In this document: positions 1,315 through 57,537 of the stretch, piece after piece | Numbering within the stretch: the stretch's first letter is position 1 | How the letters are laid out: every line of letters begins with the position of its first letter | NCBI GenBank assembly: GCA_038087875.1 | Contig: CM075987.1 | Location: 20,276,001-20,336,000, forward strand | Direction: 5' to 3' | Source: Malacoraja senta | Taxonomy: Eukaryota | DNA length: 60,000 bases | Notes under the pieces: generated by a model | What the model saw: the letters and a program-made list of their open reading frames with translations, nothing else | What the model was told of the DNA's origin: nothing | Databases searched by the model: none | Position numbers and translations under genes: made by a program

Positions 1315-4137
1315 CTAGGACTATGATATAGTTGGGATCACGGAGACATGGCTCCAGGGGAACCAAGGCTGGGAGCTGAACATCCAGGGATATTCAATAT
1401 TCAGGAGGGATAGACAGAAAGGGAAAGGAGGTGGGGTAGCGTTGCTGGTTAGAGAGCAGATTAACGCAATAGAAAGGAAGGACATTAGCTTGGAGGATGT
1501 GGAATCGATATGGGTAGAGCTGCAAAACACTAAGGGGCAGAAAATGCTAGTGGGAGTTGTGTACAGGCCACCTAACAGTAGTAGTGGAGTTGGGGATGGC
1601 ATCAAACAGGAAATTAGAAATGCGTGCAACAAAGGTAAAACAGTTATAATGGGTGACTTCAATCTACATATAGATTGGGTGAATCAAATTGGCAAGGGTG
1701 CTGAGGGAGAGGATTTCTTGGAATGTATGCGGGATAGTTTTCTAAACCAACATGTAGAGGAACCAACGAGAGAGCAGGCTATTCTAGACTGGGTATTGAG
1801 TAATGAGGAAGGGTTAGTTAGCAGTCTTGTTGTGCGTGGCCCCTTGGGCAAGAGTGACCATAATATGGTTGAGTTCTTCATTAGGATGGAGAGTGACATT
1901 GTTAATTCAGAAACAAGGGTCCTGAACTTAAAGAAAGGTAACTTAGAGGGTATGAGAAGTGAATTGGCCAAGATAGACTGGCAATTGATTCTTAATGGGT
2001 TGATGGTAGATATGCAATGGAAGGCATTTAAAGACTGCATGGATGAACTACAACAATTGTTCATCCCAGTTTGGCAAAAAAATAAATCGGGGAAGGTAGT
2101 GCATCCATGGATAACAAGGGAAATCAGGGATAGTATCAAAACAAAAGATGAAGCGTACAAATTAGCCAGAAAAAGCAGCCTACCAGAGGAATGGGAGAAA
2201 TTCAGAGTCCAGCAGAGGAGGACAAAGGGCTTTATTAGGAAAGGGAAAATAGATTATGAAAGAAAACTGGCAGGGAACATAAAAATTGACTGCAAAACCT
2301 TTTATAGATATGTGAAGACAAAAAGATTAGTTAAAAGAAATGTAGGTCCCTTGCCATCAGAAACAGGTGAATTGATCATGGGGAACAAGGACATGGCAGA
2401 CCAATTGAATAACTACTTTGGTTATGTCTTCACTAAGGAAGACATAAATAATCTGCCGGAAATAGCAGGGGACCGGGGGTCAAATGAGATGGAGGAACTG
2501 AGTGAAATCCAGGTTAGCCGGGAAGTGGTGTTCGGTAAATTGAATGGATTAAAGGCCAATAAATCCCCAGGGCCAGGTAGGCTGCATCCCAGAGTACTTA
2601 AGGAAGTAGCCCCAGAAATAGTGGATGCATTAGTGATAATTTTTCAAAACTCTTTAGATTCTGGAGTAGTTCCTGAGGATTGGAGGGTAGCTAATGTAAC
2701 CCCACTTTTTAAAAAGGGAGGGAGAGAGAAAACGGGGAATTACAGACCAGTTAGGCTAATGTCGGTAGTGGGGAAACTGCTAGAATCAGTTATTAAAGAT
2801 GGGATAGCAGCACATTTGGAAAGTGGTGAAATCATTGGACAAAGTCAGCATGGATTTATGAAAGGTAAATCATGTCTGACGAATCTTATAGAATTTTTCG
2901 AGGATGTAACTAGTAGAGTGGATAAGGGAGAACCAGTGGATGTGTTATATCTGGACTTTCAGAAGGCTTTCGACAAGGTCCCACTTAAGAGATTAGTATA
3001 CAAACTTAAAGCACACGGTATTGGGGGTTCAGTATTGATGTGGATAGAGAACTGGCTGGCAGACAGGAAGCAAAGAGTAGGAGTAAACGGGTCCTTTTCA
3101 CAATGGCAGGCAGTGACTAGTGGGGTACCGCAAGGCTCATTGCTGGGACCCCAGCTATTTACGATATATATTAATGATTTGGATGAGGGAATTGAATGCA
3201 ACATCTCCAAGTTTGCGGATGACACGAAGCTGGGGGCAGTGTTAGCTGTGAGGAGGATGCTCGGAGGCTGCAAGGTGACTTGGATAGGCTGGGTGAGTGG
3301 GCAAATGCATGGCAGATGCAGTATAATGTGGATAAATGTGAGGTTATCCACTTTGGTGGCAAAAACAGGAAAGTAGACTATTATCTGAATGGTGGCCGAT
3401 TAGGAAAAGGGGAGATGCAACGAGACCTGGGTGTCATGGTACACCAGTCATTAAAAGTAGGCATGCAGGTGCAGCAGGCAGTGAAGAAGGCGAATGGTAT
3501 GTTAGCATTCATAGCAAAAGGATTTGAGTATAGGAGCAGGGAGGTTCTACTGCAGTTGTACAGGGTCTTGGTGAGACCACACCTGGAGTATTGCGTACAG
3601 TTTTGGTCTCCTAATCTGAGGAAAGACATTCTTGCCATAGAGGGAGTACAGAGAAGGTTCACCAGACTGATTCCTGGGATGTCAGGACTTTCATATGAAG
3701 AAAGACTGGATAGACTCGGTTTGTACTCGTTAGAATTTAGAAGATTGAGGGGGGATCTTATAGAAACGTACAAAATCTTAAGGGGTTGGACAGGCTAGAT
3801 GCAGGAAGATTGTTCCCGATGTTGGGGAAGTCCAGAACAAGGGGTCACAGTTTAAGGATAAGGGGGAAATCTTTTAGGACCGTGATGAGGAAAACAGTTT
3901 TCACACAGAGAGTGGTGAATCTCTGGAATTCTCTGGCACAGAAGGTAGTTGAGGCCAGTTCATTGGCTATATTTAAGAGGGAGTTAGATGTGGCCCTTGT
4001 GGCTAAAAGGATCAGGGCGTATGGAGAGAAAGCAGGTACAGGATACTGAGTTGGATGATCAGCCATGATCATATCGAATGGCGGTGCAGGCTTGAAGGGC
4101 CGAATGGCCTACTGCACCTATTTTCTATGTTTCTATG
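1315..4137 (+). mobile_element. CR1-clade LINE (HER1-like), 5'-truncated, young; ORF2 APE endonuclease plus RT with two frameshifts
   Basis: ORFs 1442-3376, 3280-3798 and 3786-4049 carry APE motifs (VYRPP, MGDFN, SDH) and RT motifs (QGS, FADD); 3' tail TTTCTATG x2; possible TSD GAAATG at 1309-1314 and 4137-4142. Confidence 0.95.
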
Positions 4138-20632: not shown

Positions 20633-20780
20633 TTTATTATAGTGTCTTTCTATAGTTTCCAGCAAACTGTTCCAACATCAGCAAACATTAGTGCCATGAC
20701 CTATAAGGAGGTGTTAAGCAGATCACCAATAGTTTATTGGTGAATTTTTTTTATGGATTCGAAAAAATATCTTAATGGAT

Positions 20781-20924
20781 CTTCCTCTTCTTCTTGCGTA
20801 TGGCGTGCACAGCCTAAAGTTGTAGGACAACTTGTTCTATTTGATCTTATTTGACTGTGCATGCCAGGTTGATTGCATTTGTCGAAAAAGGGCGGACCAT
20901 GTAAAGGTTGCAATCTTCCACTCC
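20781..20924 (-). mobile_element. short non-autonomous retroposon with GAA tail (RTE-like) and 5' HDV-like ribozyme fold
   Basis: perfect 12-bp TSD ATCTTAATGGAT at 20769-20780 and 20925-20936; minus-strand 3' end CAAGAAGAAGAGGAAG. Confidence 0.85.
20871..20924 (-). ncRNA. HDV/CPEB3-like ribozyme fold (probably a decayed copy)
   Basis: GGAGUGG(P1) AA GAUUGCA(P2) ACC(P3) UUUACAU(L3) GGU(P3') CCGCCCU(P1') UUUUCGA C AAA UGCAAUC(P2'). Confidence 0.75.
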
Positions 20925-21159
20925 ATCTTAATGGATGAAACATGCCTTCAGAGGCAGAGAGATATGGGAGGGAGTTTTGGAGCACGGGTTTATGGTAGCC
21001 CAAGCTATGGCCACAAAGTTTTAAAAAGAAAAAATAAATGAAGGGAGAGAAAAAACTCTGAAGGGAAGACTTTTGATATTGAATGAGATTATGGGCATAG
21101 TTAGAAGCTGTACAAACAGGGACATGCTGCTTGAATGGGTGGTGGAGGCAGAGATCACC

Positions 21160-21945
21160 AGCTGCAGGAGTTCCTCTGGGCAGGATCCTAGGTTCAACCA
21201 TCTTCAGCTGCTTCATCAAGGACCTTCCTTCAATTATGAGGTCAGAAGTAGGCATGTCTGTTGTAATGGTTTTTTGTCAGATATTACCCCCTGACATTCA
21301 GAGGCATGACCATCACTGGCTCCAACCCCCCCCCCCCCCCCCCCCCCCGACCACACTATCAATATCCTGGGAGCAATAACAAAAACTGAATTGGAGTAAC
21401 TATATGAACAATGTAACTACAAGAACAGATCAAAGGCTAGGAATTCTGCAGTGAGTAACTCTCTTCCTCTTCCCAAAGCTTGTCCACAATCTACAAGGCT
21501 TAAGTTAGGAGTGTGATGGAATAATCTCCACTTGGCTGGATGCTTGCAACTTCTACAATGCTCGACACAATACCGGGCATAGTAACCGGCTTAATAGGCA
21601 CACCCCATCCACAACCATCCACTCACTCCACCACTGACACATTGAAGTAGTTTGTACCATCTGCAGAATGCATTGCAGAACTTACCAAGCTTATTTAGAC
21701 GGTATCTTTCAAACCCTGAACACTACCAGCTGGAAGGACAAGGGCAGCAAAGCATAGGAACACCGCCACCTGTAAGTCACCCTCCAAGCCACGCACCATC
21801 AAGAGTTAGAAATATATTGTCGTTCTTAACCGTCGTTGGGTCAAAATCCTAGAATTCTCTCCTGAACAGTTTAGTGGGTATACTCGCGCCTCAAGGACTG
21901 CAGAGGTTCAAGAAAGCAGCTCACCAGCACGTGTTCAAGGGCAGT
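21160..21945 (+). mobile_element. old CR1/L2-group LINE remnant
   Basis: GVPLGRILGSTIFSCFIKDLP, a degenerate RT GVPQGSVLGP motif. Confidence 0.7.
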
Positions 21946-52641: not shown

Positions 52642-53019
<378 letters not shown>

Positions 53020-54196
53020 TGAGACCACGGAACATTATACGTACAGTTTGATTTGAAGAATGTTAATGTTATGATCTGTAATCCATTCTGTCCTTATTAC
53101 ATTTTTCAAACTCCACACTGTACAGTCTTAGATATGTGTTTGTCCCAGATCAGAAAATGTTTGTCTGAAGTCTTATGTTTATGTAAACAATCTCTAAATG
53201 GGTTTTTATACCATTCAATATTTTCTTATCTGCTAATATATTCATATTTTGCAACATTCGGCTATATGGCAATTTCTTCATATTGGATTTTCTAACTGAC
53301 TAAATGTGAGTTTATTGATTCGGTCTTAAGGGCACTCTACTCCACTCAAGTTGTTTCATTAGGATCGCATATTCCTTTGACTAAAGCTGTGCCATTCTAT
53401 TACATTTTTGCTCCCACTTGATGATTCATTTTATTTTAACCAAAAGATGGTTTCAATCTATACCATTTGGATCCTAGATTTGCTCAATTTTGCTTGATGA
53501 TTTGACTCTGGTTGTCCCATCCACTGACCAAGAGCTTCTGCTTCCAGGTGCTATGTTACCTTATATCTAAACCTGTCCTTACAGAGAAGGGAGGCAAGTT
53601 GATTTTTCATTTCAACAAGCTGGGTTCAAATCTAACCCATATTGATCGAATCAAACTTGTCTCTCTCGACAGCAAAAGTCCTCCGTGGAATGAATTTGTG
53701 GAATCTGCACGTCTTATTTTTGATCATCTGTGCCTCAACACAATCTATTACTAATTGATAGCAAATTTGCACCCTTCTCCAAGATACAGTAATTGCTATG
53801 ATATGAGTATGAGCAGAGAAGAAAGTACTTGAATCTTTATCCAAACTATTATATAAGACTTGCAAAAATTGTTTTAAAAATGTAGAAATAAATAGTAAGG
53901 AGGTCATCAGCATTGTTTTTTTTTTCAATCATGGATTTGTAAAACAATGCTTCATAAGTGCATTTACTTACCTTTGACTAACTTTATTTTTGAGTGAGCC
54001 ACTAAATATTTTGCAATCAATGGGAATAAAATAATAATATGAATTCCAATCTGATCTGGGATGGGGAAAAGGCCATAGAAACTCTAACTTCTGTTGTCTT
54101 AATAGCTTACTGAGAAATGCTTGGTTTGGTATTAGGCTAAACTGATCATGAAGGTGTTGGATTTGTTTTTGCACTGAACCAGCTAACCTCTCCTGA

Positions 54197-54574: not shown

Positions 54575-54925
<351 letters not shown>

Positions 54926-55979
54926 TAAATGTCACCACATCTCGCACAAAAAAACACAAAAAAAACTGGAGGAACTTGTAGGGCTGAGGGGTGCATGTGC
55001 ATGTATGCGTGTCTGCAGAATTTCAGCATTTGCAATATCTTGCTGTATCTACCTCATCTAAGTAGCTATTCGTTAGCGGCCATAATAGCAGTCAGACATT
55101 AAAATAATAACCAATTTAGAAACTGCCTCCTTTCTAGAAGGCTCCTTTTTTGTTGCTTACTTTTAGTATGTGAATGATATGACTAAGTTCATTAGAAATG
55201 CAAAGTACTATTTAAATGTCTCTGTTGATCTGCTCGATTTATGCTCAACAGCATGACTAATGCAACTGCGGAGAGCCTGGCACAATAATGGTCATGTGCC
55301 TTGGCTTCTGCTGAGGGTGACCACAATGATGTGTGGTCCTTTGATGAGACGATTGTGGAAATATGCAGATTCAACAGTTGCCAAATTTTATATTCTTTTA
55401 TTCTCAATAAGGCCACGCAAGTAAATCATCTTGAAGAAATTACTGACAGCAGAATTACTCATTATATCCACGAGTTCATTACATCTTAGCTCGTCAGTTA
55501 AATGTCATCCTTGTAGTCTTTTATATTTCCTTTTTAAATATGAATCCAGTCACTTTTAAATGATTGTATAGTTCCAGTCTCGACATGTAACACACCAAAC
55601 ATCAGCAATCTCTAATATTTTAGTGAATCACCAAAAGAACTAAAGGCAAAATGAATAGATTTTATTTAGCAAGATGTTATAATCTAAAATGTGCTACCAA
55701 AAGAATGGATTTGATTCAGTAATAACTTTCATAAGGAATTGGAAAAAGTACTTAGAAGGAGAAAGCATTTTCAACATTAAACGGGAAGGATGAGGGGGTG
55801 GCTGCAACTAATTGTTTAATTGAATATGTAATTAAAAAGTTCAGGTATAATGGTCAAACAGGCATCCTATATTTCAAAAGTTTTATTATTTCATTCAGAG
55901 TGTGTCACGTATATCAATGTGCCAATCAATGGTAACAATCTTACACTGCTTGTCCTTTCCAAATATTTCACAGATTTTG

Positions 55980-57537
55980 TTAGTGTAGAAATAGCAGGGG
56001 CTATGACAGAAATATTTCAAATGTCATTAGAAACGGGAATAGTGCTGGAGGATTGGCGTACTGCGCATGTTGTTCCGTTGTTTAAAAAGGGTTCTAAGAG
56101 TAAACCTAGCAATTATAGACCTGTTAGTTTGACGTCAGTGGTGGGCAAATTAATGGAAAGGATACTTAAAGATAATATATATAAGCATCTGGATAAGCAG
56201 GGTCTGATTAGGAACAGTCAACATGGATTTGTGCCTGGAAGGTCATGTTTGACTAATCTTCTAGAATTTTTCGAAGAGGTTACTAGGGAAACTGATGAGG
56301 GTAAAGCAGAGGATGTTGTCTATATGGATGCCAGAGAGTAATGGTGGATGGCTGTTTGTCAGGTTGGAGGCCGGTGACTAGTGGGGTGCCTCGGGGGTCT
56401 GTGTTGGGTCCACTGTTGTTTGTCATGTACATCAATGATCTGGATGATGGTGTGGAAAATTGGATTAGTAAGTATGCAGATGGTACTAAGATAGGTGGTG
56501 TGGTGGATAATGAAGTAGATTTTCAAAGTCTACAGAGAGAGTTAGGCCATTTGGAAGAGTGGGCTGAAAGATGGCAGATGGAGTTTAATGGTGATAAATG
56601 TGAGGTACTACATCTCGGCAGGACAAATCAAAATAGGACGTACATGGTAAACGGTAGAGAATTGAGGAAGGTACACAAAAATGCTGGAGAAACTCAGCGG
56701 GTGCAGCAGCATCTATGGAGCGAAGGAAATAGGCAACGTTTCGGGCCGAAACCCTTCTTCAGACTCAATTCAGACTTCTTCAGAGAATTGAGGAATGCAG
56801 TTGAACAGAGGGATCTAGGAATAACTGTGCATAGTTCCCTGAAGGTGGAATCTCATGTAGATAGGGTGGTAAAGAAAGCTTTTGGGGTGCTGGCCTTTAT
56901 AAATCAGAGCATTGAATATAGAAGTTGGGATGTAATGTTAAAATTGTACAAGGCATTGATGAGGCCAATTCTGGAGTATGGAGTACAATTTTGGTCGCCT
57001 AATTATAGGAAGGATGTCAACAAAATAGAGAGAGTACAGAGGAGATTTACTAGAATGTTGCCTGGGTTTCAGCAACTAAGTTACAGAGAAAGGTTGAACA
57101 AGTTAGGTCTTTATTCTTTGGAGCGCAGAAGGTTAAGAGGGGACTTGATAGAGGTCTTTAAAATTATGAGCGGGTTAGACAGAGTTGACGTGGATAAGCT
57201 TTTTCCATTGAGAGTAGGGAAGATTCAAACAAGGGGACATGACTTGAGAATTAAGGGACAGAAGTTTAGGGGGAACATTAGGGGGAACTTCTTTACTCAG
57301 AGAGTGGTAGCTATGTGGAATGAGCTTCCAGTGGAAGTGGTGGAGGCTGGTTCGATTTTATCCTTTAAAAATAGATTGGATGGGTATATGGACGGGAAAG
57401 GAATGGAGAGTTATGGTCTGAGTGCAGGTAGATGGGACTAGGGGGAAGTATTTTTTTTTTTTTTTAAATTTAATGTTCGGCACGGACTTGAAGGGCCGAG
57501 ATGGCCTGTTTCCGTGCTGTAATGGTTATATGGTTAC
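55980..57537 (+). mobile_element. CR1 LINE, 5'-truncated, with an internal deletion (~56330) and a nested Penelope-type insertion
   Basis: RT motifs NYRPVSLTS, QHGF, GVPRGSVLGP, LEYGVQFW; ATGGTT-type tail. Confidence 0.92.

Follow-up and report, generated by a model that had tools for sequence, protein, structure and literature searches.

The question raised by this locus is what kind of element lies between two identical 12-mers in a 60,000-nucleotide (nt) stretch of Malacoraja senta DNA (GenBank assembly GCA_038087875.1, contig CM075987.1, positions 20,276,001 to 20,336,000 of the forward strand; hereafter the window), and how the 5' end of that element is made. We consider it quite likely that the 144-nt sequence on the minus strand of the window is a mutated copy of an abundant non-autonomous retroposon, which derives from an RTE-like long interspersed nuclear element (LINE) and is headed by a 54-nt ribozyme like that of hepatitis delta virus (HDV), without a P4 helix. 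Element nt 1 (G1) corresponds to window position 20924, and the features of the copy are as follows.

Positions 20781-20924, minus strand: non-autonomous retroposon copy of 144 nt, with 94-96% identity to the other 39 copies that were scored.
Positions 20925-20936: target site duplication (TSD) on the element's 5' side (atcttaatggat), which directly adjoins G1 (20924) and is identical to 20769-20780.
Positions 20769-20780: TSD on the element's 3' side, identical at 12 of 12 positions.
Positions 20871-20924, minus strand: minimal P4-less HDV-like ribozyme motif, element nt 1-54, from segmentation, descriptor and comparison with the family majority.
Positions 20918-20924, minus strand: 5' strand of P1, nt 1-7, with the predicted cleavage site immediately 5' of G1 (20924).
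Positions 20889-20895, minus strand: 3' strand of P1, nt 30-36.
Positions 20909-20915, minus strand: 5' strand of P2, nt 10-16.
Positions 20871-20877, minus strand: 3' strand of P2, nt 48-54.
Positions 20896-20908, minus strand: P3 (nt 17-19 with nt 27-29) and L3 (nt 20-26; UUUACAU in the window copy).
Position 20881, minus strand: C44, the catalytic-cytosine position and first base of J4/2 (C-N-A-A), numbered by analogy to C57 of the CPEB3 ribozyme.
Positions 20845-20924, minus strand: element nt 1 to ~80, common with the 5' end of the partner LINE (ribozyme and start of the 5' untranslated region, UTR).
Positions 20781-20825, minus strand: element nt 100-144, common with the 3' end of the partner LINE (last codons, stop, 3' UTR and tail).
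Positions 20814-20816, minus strand: stop codon TAG, followed by a 3' UTR of ~33 nt.
Positions 20781-20795, minus strand: imperfect (GAA)n tail.

The window copy and its family

A preliminary description of this DNA had reported a perfect 12-bp TSD around 144 bp, and the two 12-mers indeed flank exactly 144 bp. The GAA-repeat ending described there is present, and its reading of the first 54 nt was correct throughout, including the minus-strand sequence, the G1.U36 wobble and A3-C34 mismatch in P1, P2 (7 of 7 pairs formed), P3 (3 of 3 pairs), the 7-nt L3 and the C at 20881. A U5.G32 wobble in P1 is an extra feature that had not been mentioned. Relative to the majority head of the family, the window copy carries G3A, G8A, C22U, G25A, G37U and G45A. 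Given that C22U, G25A, G37U and G3A are among these differences, it was reasonable to call the copy probably inactive, and to judge from its sequence it is most likely catalytically dead. A BLAST search of the element against the 60-kb window found no second copy.

When the host assembly (1.94 Gb in 6,182 contigs) was searched, the whole 144 bp gave 1,758 first-look candidates, and all 40 that were scored were 94-100% identical. A 28-nt core pattern with up to 2 mismatches matched the genome 7,472 times (its reversed control, 0 times) and a 28-nt 3' pattern 9,480 times, while the whole 54-nt head with up to 1 mismatch gave 1,560 matches, the first 100 listed being all exact.

The majority sequence was derived from the 30 best copies, 40 copies with an exact core and 20 copies with an exact 3' pattern. 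Its head starts with GGGGUGG and has L3 UUCACGU, a P1.1 pair C22-G37 and J4/2 CGAA, so that the expectation that a consensus would regain L3, P1.1 and CGAA was borne out, with G3-C34 restored in addition. The nested double-pseudoknot order (P1, P2, P3, L3, P3', P1', P1.1, (P4), J4/2, P2') is found in the family majority. Among the 90 sequences, C44, U20, C22, G25 and G37 show no variation or are conserved at 90% or more; the roles of the catalytic C, U20, G25 and the P1.1 pair C22-G37 are those given for the CPEB3 and HDV ribozymes in the accessible parts of PMC4836649. Subfamily variants of J4/2 (CUAA, CAAA and CCAA) differ in the second base alone. Between G37 and C44 there are only 6 nt (UUUCGA), which do not make up a P4 helix.

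A descriptor for the nested double pseudoknot was applied to the window (both strands) and to 30 shuffles that preserve dinucleotides (3.6 Mb in total). Its loose version concerns structure only and allows one P1 mismatch; its strict version demands G1, a P1 free of mismatches, C22-G37 and a C-N-A-A that immediately precedes P2'. At nt 1 the family majority satisfies the strict version, and there are 0 strict matches in the window and 0 in the 3.6 Mb of shuffles. Furthermore, a comparison of the main two subfamilies, which comprise 69 and 13 of 86 copies, revealed differences at 2 of 54 positions in the head and at 11 of 78 in nt 55-132; this sample leans towards intact cores, because 40 copies had been selected for them. 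The two variable head positions are 8 (in J1/2; G or A) and 45 (the N of C-N-A-A; any base), and no paired or L3 position differs between these subfamilies. By its sequence, the family head qualifies as an HDV-like ribozyme, for which self-cleavage is predicted.

The ends of the copies were analyzed in 60 copies sampled regardless of their 5' end, 57 of which have the head. The three headless ones are L101 and L103, which are LINE 3' ends, and L108, which is truncated at nt 89. The first base is nt 1 in 50 of the 57 headed copies, nt 2 in 5 of them, and nt 3 and nt 5 in one copy each; in 37 of the 57 an exact TSD of 8-15 nt ends within -1 to +2 of the first base, compared with 5 of 1,122 for mismatched flanks. 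This confirms the proposal that 5' ends stack at G1 without random 5' extension. The upstream flanks and TSDs are unrelated between copies, and insertion is not site-specific. It should be noted that four pairs of loci (L002/L003, L009/L010, L023/L026 and L063/L064) have identical copies and identical flanks, and are either segmental duplications or parts of the assembly that are present twice; the samples therefore contain slightly fewer independent insertions than copies counted. We also noticed an older copy of the element (L025:1699-1833; 85.5% identical) that lies 55 nt downstream of a young copy.

The partner LINE

The preliminary description had further proposed a search for an RTE LINE that shares both ends with the element. 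The partner was located by sampling matches to the 3' pattern without the exact core: 2 of 20 matches that were found by the 3' pattern only were LINE 3' ends (L101 and L103). The open reading frame (ORF) of this LINE ends in ...LDLQL, its TAG lies inside the element at nt 109-111, and ~33 nt of UTR and the (GAA)n follow. Element nt 100-144 are 87-100% identical to 12 LINE 3' ends. The C-terminal 85 amino acids (aa) of the LINE protein gave at least 2,098 first-look candidates, with protein identities of 74-88%. Only 28 candidates were obtained for the LINE 5' region. In one of them (L135), element nt 8-77 are present at 91-95% identity and are followed by a LINE-specific leader, and an ATG ~107 nt from G1 opens onto the endonuclease domain. 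Sixteen further LINE 5' regions contain the head from nt 1-5 in 7 cases, truncated at about nt 8-17 in 6 cases and from further in for the remaining 3. An endonuclease/reverse transcriptase LINE thus shares nt 1 to ~80 and the last 45 nt with the element, as had been suggested, with the name RTE given by architecture.

Because its 5' and 3' ends are both common with one LINE, the 144-nt element is an internal-deletion derivative of that LINE, similar to a short internally deleted element (SIDE): both ends are retained and the coding region is gone. An intermediate form links the LINE to the 144-nt element: on the minus strand of L132 (1335-1959) there is a mid-size deleted LINE made up of head nt 13-76, the 5' leader, the last ~430 nt of the ORF and the tail.

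Pfam searches of the LINE protein identified Exo_endo_phos_2 (33.5 bits) and RVT_1 (83.4 bits). Its homologues have ~1,000 aa and both domains and are encoded on contigs of 3.1-3.6 kb; the closest among those listed is 73% identical, and none of the 120 homologues listed is named RTE. In LINEs of the RTE clade, a single ORF of ~1,000 aa encodes both an AP-endonuclease and the reverse transcriptase, the total length is ~3.3 kb, the 3' UTR is very short and the tail is a short repeat, an architecture reportedly set out by Malik and Eickbush in 1998. The partner LINE looks RTE-like, a label that is taken from this architecture and not from a tree.

Relatives of the LINE protein are encoded at 77 metagenome loci (349,526 bases, searched on both strands), 15 of which include the N-terminal region. 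HDV-like motifs with a P4 were found in 2 of these 15 loci, at L151:54-131 and L201:280-357, ~100 nt before the start of the ORF. P1, P2 and P3 of the L151 motif differ in sequence from those of the element and yet are fully paired, while the L201 motif has one P1 mismatch; P4 of the two motifs has 5-7 bp. Across all 77 loci there are 3 motif sites, compared with 4 matches in 10 block-shuffled sets (0.4 per set). On the CPEB3 model RF00622 the L151 motif scores 15.8 bits and is the only match to that model in its locus. The L151 head may be related to the element head by common descent.

Some copies of the LINE have an inverted 5' arm. In L126:912-1329 and L127:26-116, the reverse-complemented head and leader adjoin a 5'-truncated body in direct orientation; the same arrangement is seen from the other strand in L218, L220, L223 and L226, where the flank upstream of the LINE head is the reverse complement of the LINE C-terminal coding region. 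These copies look like 5' inversions of the twin-priming type. The end of the inverted arm falls within head nt 1-10, in L220 precisely on G1; such an end at or near G1 fits an RNA template that ends at G1. The 30 best RVT_1 loci of the genome were also considered as the partner; they had nothing in common with the element and contained no GAA/TTC run of at least 3 units.

RNA ends and the origin of G1

Sequence words of the element are present in RNA runs of five organisms from ten studies. Raw single-cell RNA reads (X23) were aligned to a majority-like copy with its flanks (L054), in which G1 is place 240. Of 4,040 aligned reads, 1,524 continue past G1 into one common sequence (agreement 0.8), the reverse complement of which is the '5 prime SMART adapter' of Drop-seq pipelines, as given in the accessible parts of PMC8408944, sitting directly on G1. 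The adapter-bearing reads retain all four leading Gs of the element after the GGG of the adapter. Given that strand invasion would have replaced these Gs, these are RNA molecules with an end at G1. Another 237 reads continue at place 241 into sequences that they do not share and represent read-through from many loci. At the other end, 419 reads switch to poly-T exactly at the start of the (GAA)n tail (L054 places 107 and 110; element nt 131-134), which reflects either oligo-dT priming on the A-rich tail or real A-tails. RNAs spanning G1 to the tail therefore exist in vivo. In the contig-based RNA runs X15, X19 and X20 the family is present with its flanks running on; such data do not give ends.

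The G1 end is probably made by self-cleavage. An alternative that we regard as unlikely is that G1 is a transcription start from an internal promoter, such as Pr77 of L1Tc/NARTc or box A/box B, and that the HDV-like fold is inactive or used otherwise, for instance in protein binding or translation initiation. The template-switch reads prove just an RNA 5' end at G1, and the lack of covariation and of a significant Rfam score within the family, detailed below, is in line with such an alternative, as is the report, in the accessible parts of PMC3383444 and PMC3185411, that the L1Tc/NARTc head is both promoter and ribozyme. Against it, ARAGORN found 0 tRNA genes in 6 of 6 loci and Rfam no small-RNA family at E up to 10, in agreement with the absence of a tRNA head noted earlier. 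Moreover, the strict HDV-like descriptor is satisfied exactly at nt 1, related LINEs keep the same fold at the same place with other helix sequences, and RTE elements are stated, in the accessible parts of PMC6765202 and PMC3774820, to lack promoters of their own. The two functions, promoter and ribozyme, could also coexist, so that this alternative excludes self-cleavage only in the form in which the fold is inactive.

Several results weigh against reading the head as a ribozyme whose RNA is mobilized by the LINE. The reads at G1 cannot separate a cleaved 5'-OH from a transcription start. The P4 of the element head is cut down to 6 nt; P4-less HDV-like ribozymes are reportedly active. The descriptor was written post hoc, after the sequence was known, and the 40 copies picked for an exact core bias the conservation of nt 17-44 upward in that part of the sample. 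The loose descriptor, which the window copy passes, finds 49 sites in the window and a total of 1,030 in the shuffles (~34 for each 120 kb); the fold of this copy alone is therefore not beyond chance, the probability of a loose-descriptor site at one given base being ~3 in 10,000. Minimum free energies, calculated by a nested method that ignores pseudoknots, are no better than those of shuffles (z from -0.18 to +0.92). For the first 59 nt of the window copy z is -0.18 and P2 and P3 are recovered; for the majority head P1 and P3 are recovered and both strands of P2 are left free. Nor did an intact LINE ORF turn up: in the 150 matches scored, the longest open frame has 449 aa.

Infernal scoring against HDV and CPEB3 models, which the preliminary description had proposed, did not reach significance. 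In Rfam at E up to 10, the window copy matches no HDV-family or CPEB3 model; for a good family copy the best match is to RF02682 at 14.4 bits (E = 2.2; gathering score 44), spanning exactly nt 1-54, with nothing on RF00622 or RF00094 at E up to 10. Rfam in gathering mode, however, also gave 0 matches in the 15 related LINE loci and so missed even the P4-bearing L151 motif; a weak Rfam score is therefore poor evidence against a ribozyme in the element. Within the family, none of the 18 pairs shows changes in both partners, and shuffles give values equal to those observed. Since the copies are only ~5% diverged, this absence of covariation is expected. Of 988 cells counted across 90 sequences, 94.7% are paired, and U5-A32 of the LINE heads corresponds to U5.G32 of the short element, a one-sided change that keeps the pair.

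That an ordinary short repeat of LINE origin resembles an HDV-like ribozyme by chance is highly improbable in our judgment: the loose-descriptor counts in window and shuffles and the near-zero energy z-scores are what it would lead one to expect, but the majority conforms at its first nucleotide to a strict descriptor that matches nothing in 3.6 Mb of shuffles, its unpaired core is that of the CPEB3 consensus (L3 7 of 7, GU after P1', J4/2 CGAA), the head is more conserved than the body between subfamilies, and relatives hold canonical versions of the motif.

With self-cleavage as the origin of G1, a copy of the element would be transcribed within a longer host transcript, read through from a host promoter, as the element itself appears to lack one. 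The head would fold into the nested double pseudoknot and cut 5' of G1, so that the RNA would start at the first base of the element. The LINE protein, which presumably mobilizes the short element, would recognize the common 3' end with the (GAA)n tail and copy the RNA by target-primed reverse transcription at a nicked target, and insertion would leave the target duplication of 8-15 bp.

Relation to known ribozymes and retroposons

HDV-like ribozymes at the 5' ends of RTE, Baggins, R2, R4 and L1Tc elements have been described (Ruminski et al., 2011, as cited in the accessible parts of PMC6765202 and PMC3774820). As in RTE-type ribozyme heads, the ribozyme motif is the first sequence of the present element and its predicted cleavage site coincides with the 5' end of the element; the parent LINE has one ORF, for endonuclease and reverse transcriptase, together with a very short 3' UTR and a microsatellite-like tail; and release from host co-transcripts is presumed. 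Unlike in the two P4-bearing relatives, where P4 has 5-7 bp, the corresponding segment of the element head has 6 nt, and unlike in the RTE-type precedents, the short derivative far outnumbers the LINE heads (>7,000 copies compared with 28 candidate LINE 5' regions).

Internally deleted non-autonomous derivatives that keep the ribozyme head are known as the SIDEs of R2 (PMC3414825) and NARTc of L1Tc (PMC3383444 and PMC3185411), as far as the accessible parts of these sources go. Like them, the present element keeps a 5' ribozyme motif and the 3' end needed for reverse transcription and has the coding region deleted, and a mid-size form (L132) is found here too. It differs from them in that its parent looks RTE-like and not like R2 or the L1Tc/ingi clade, insertion is not site-specific, and at 144 nt it is much shorter, as well as much more abundant. 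With classical short interspersed nuclear elements (SINEs) the family shares short length, non-autonomy, high copy number, a LINE-derived 3' end and TSDs. In contrast to the tRNA, 7SL or 5S heads and internal RNA polymerase III promoters of SINEs, it has no small-RNA head, and its head is LINE-derived. Thus, the designation "tRNA-less, ribozyme-headed SINE" in the preliminary description stands for the missing tRNA head and, by sequence, for the HDV-like head, while the word SINE is better replaced by internally deleted LINE derivative.

According to the accessible parts of PMC10879173, origin and function are yet to be determined for the minimal HDV-like ribozymes without P4 that come from metagenomes and for the theta ribozymes of phages. 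The present head resembles them in the missing P4 domain and the total length of ~54 nt. Whereas these have no known eukaryotic or retrotransposon setting, it is found at the head of a LINE and of its derivative.

The comparison with the CPEB3 ribozyme used the Rfam RF00622 consensus with the numbering of PMC4836649. The element head is colinear with it over nt 1-38, with a P1 that has the GGGG start and opens with G1.U36. The unpaired core is identical, comprising L3 UUCACGU, G37 and U38 after P1', and J4/2 CGAA followed by U, and P1.1 is in both cases a single C22-G37 pair beside U21/U38. The helix sequences, on the other hand, differ; the element has no P4, occurs in thousands of dispersed copies and not in a CPEB3 intron, and gives no match to RF00622 at E up to 10. 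It is therefore not a member of the CPEB3 family in the sense of Rfam, since it does not match the model and is neither intronic nor single-copy. Much of the identity in the core is explained by shared functional constraint.

The CPEB3 ribozyme is a conserved single-copy sequence in the second CPEB3 intron of mammals. According to the accessible parts of PMC8233481, it was not found outside mammals. Given this restriction to mammals, a retrotransposon lineage with the same core is a lead on its origin, and such a lineage makes that origin testable by comparative genomics. It is an unlikely proposition, in our estimate, that the RTE-like heads are the missing non-mammalian relatives of the CPEB3 ribozyme, which would then be an exapted 5' end of a retrotransposon; its grounds are the identical unpaired core and the match of the L151 head to the CPEB3 model. 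As a side aspect of this proposition, P4-less minimal HDV-like ribozymes would have, as the heads of retrotransposons, a natural place in eukaryotes.

Both the mechanism and the kind of element discussed here are known. The host family is new, as are the 54-nt form without P4 in a retrotransposon of a eukaryote, the very high copy number of the 144-nt derivative and the read-level evidence for an end at G1. Literature searches, including ones for HDV-like ribozymes in sharks and chondrichthyans, found no prior description, which does not prove its absence from print as primary ribozyme papers and repeat databases lay outside their scope. The family would be a very abundant natural example of a retroposon that needs neither a promoter nor a small-RNA head: 54 nt of predicted catalytic RNA would set the 5' end, and 45 nt of LINE tail would recruit the reverse transcriptase. 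The >1,500 near-perfect heads in one genome constitute a natural mutational library for a minimal HDV-like ribozyme, and public single-cell data already contain RNAs that begin at the predicted cut. Genome annotation should list the family among the non-autonomous elements derived from LINEs, and not as an unknown repeat or as SINE/tRNA.

Other sequences in the window may be listed briefly. A 180-aa stop-to-stop frame on the minus strand (20734-21276) crosses the element and its flanks; it is an artefact of read-through of the repeat and no gene. Long frames at 1319-3798 (685 aa, with endonuclease and reverse-transcriptase features) and at 55832-57441 (a 378-aa C-terminal part) come from other LINE families, and LINE debris with no relation to the partner LINE abounds in the window. 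Two further frames, at 52642-53022 (with a serine-rich stretch) and 54575-54928, resemble exons of a host gene; if they are such exons, the element may sit in or near a transcription unit.

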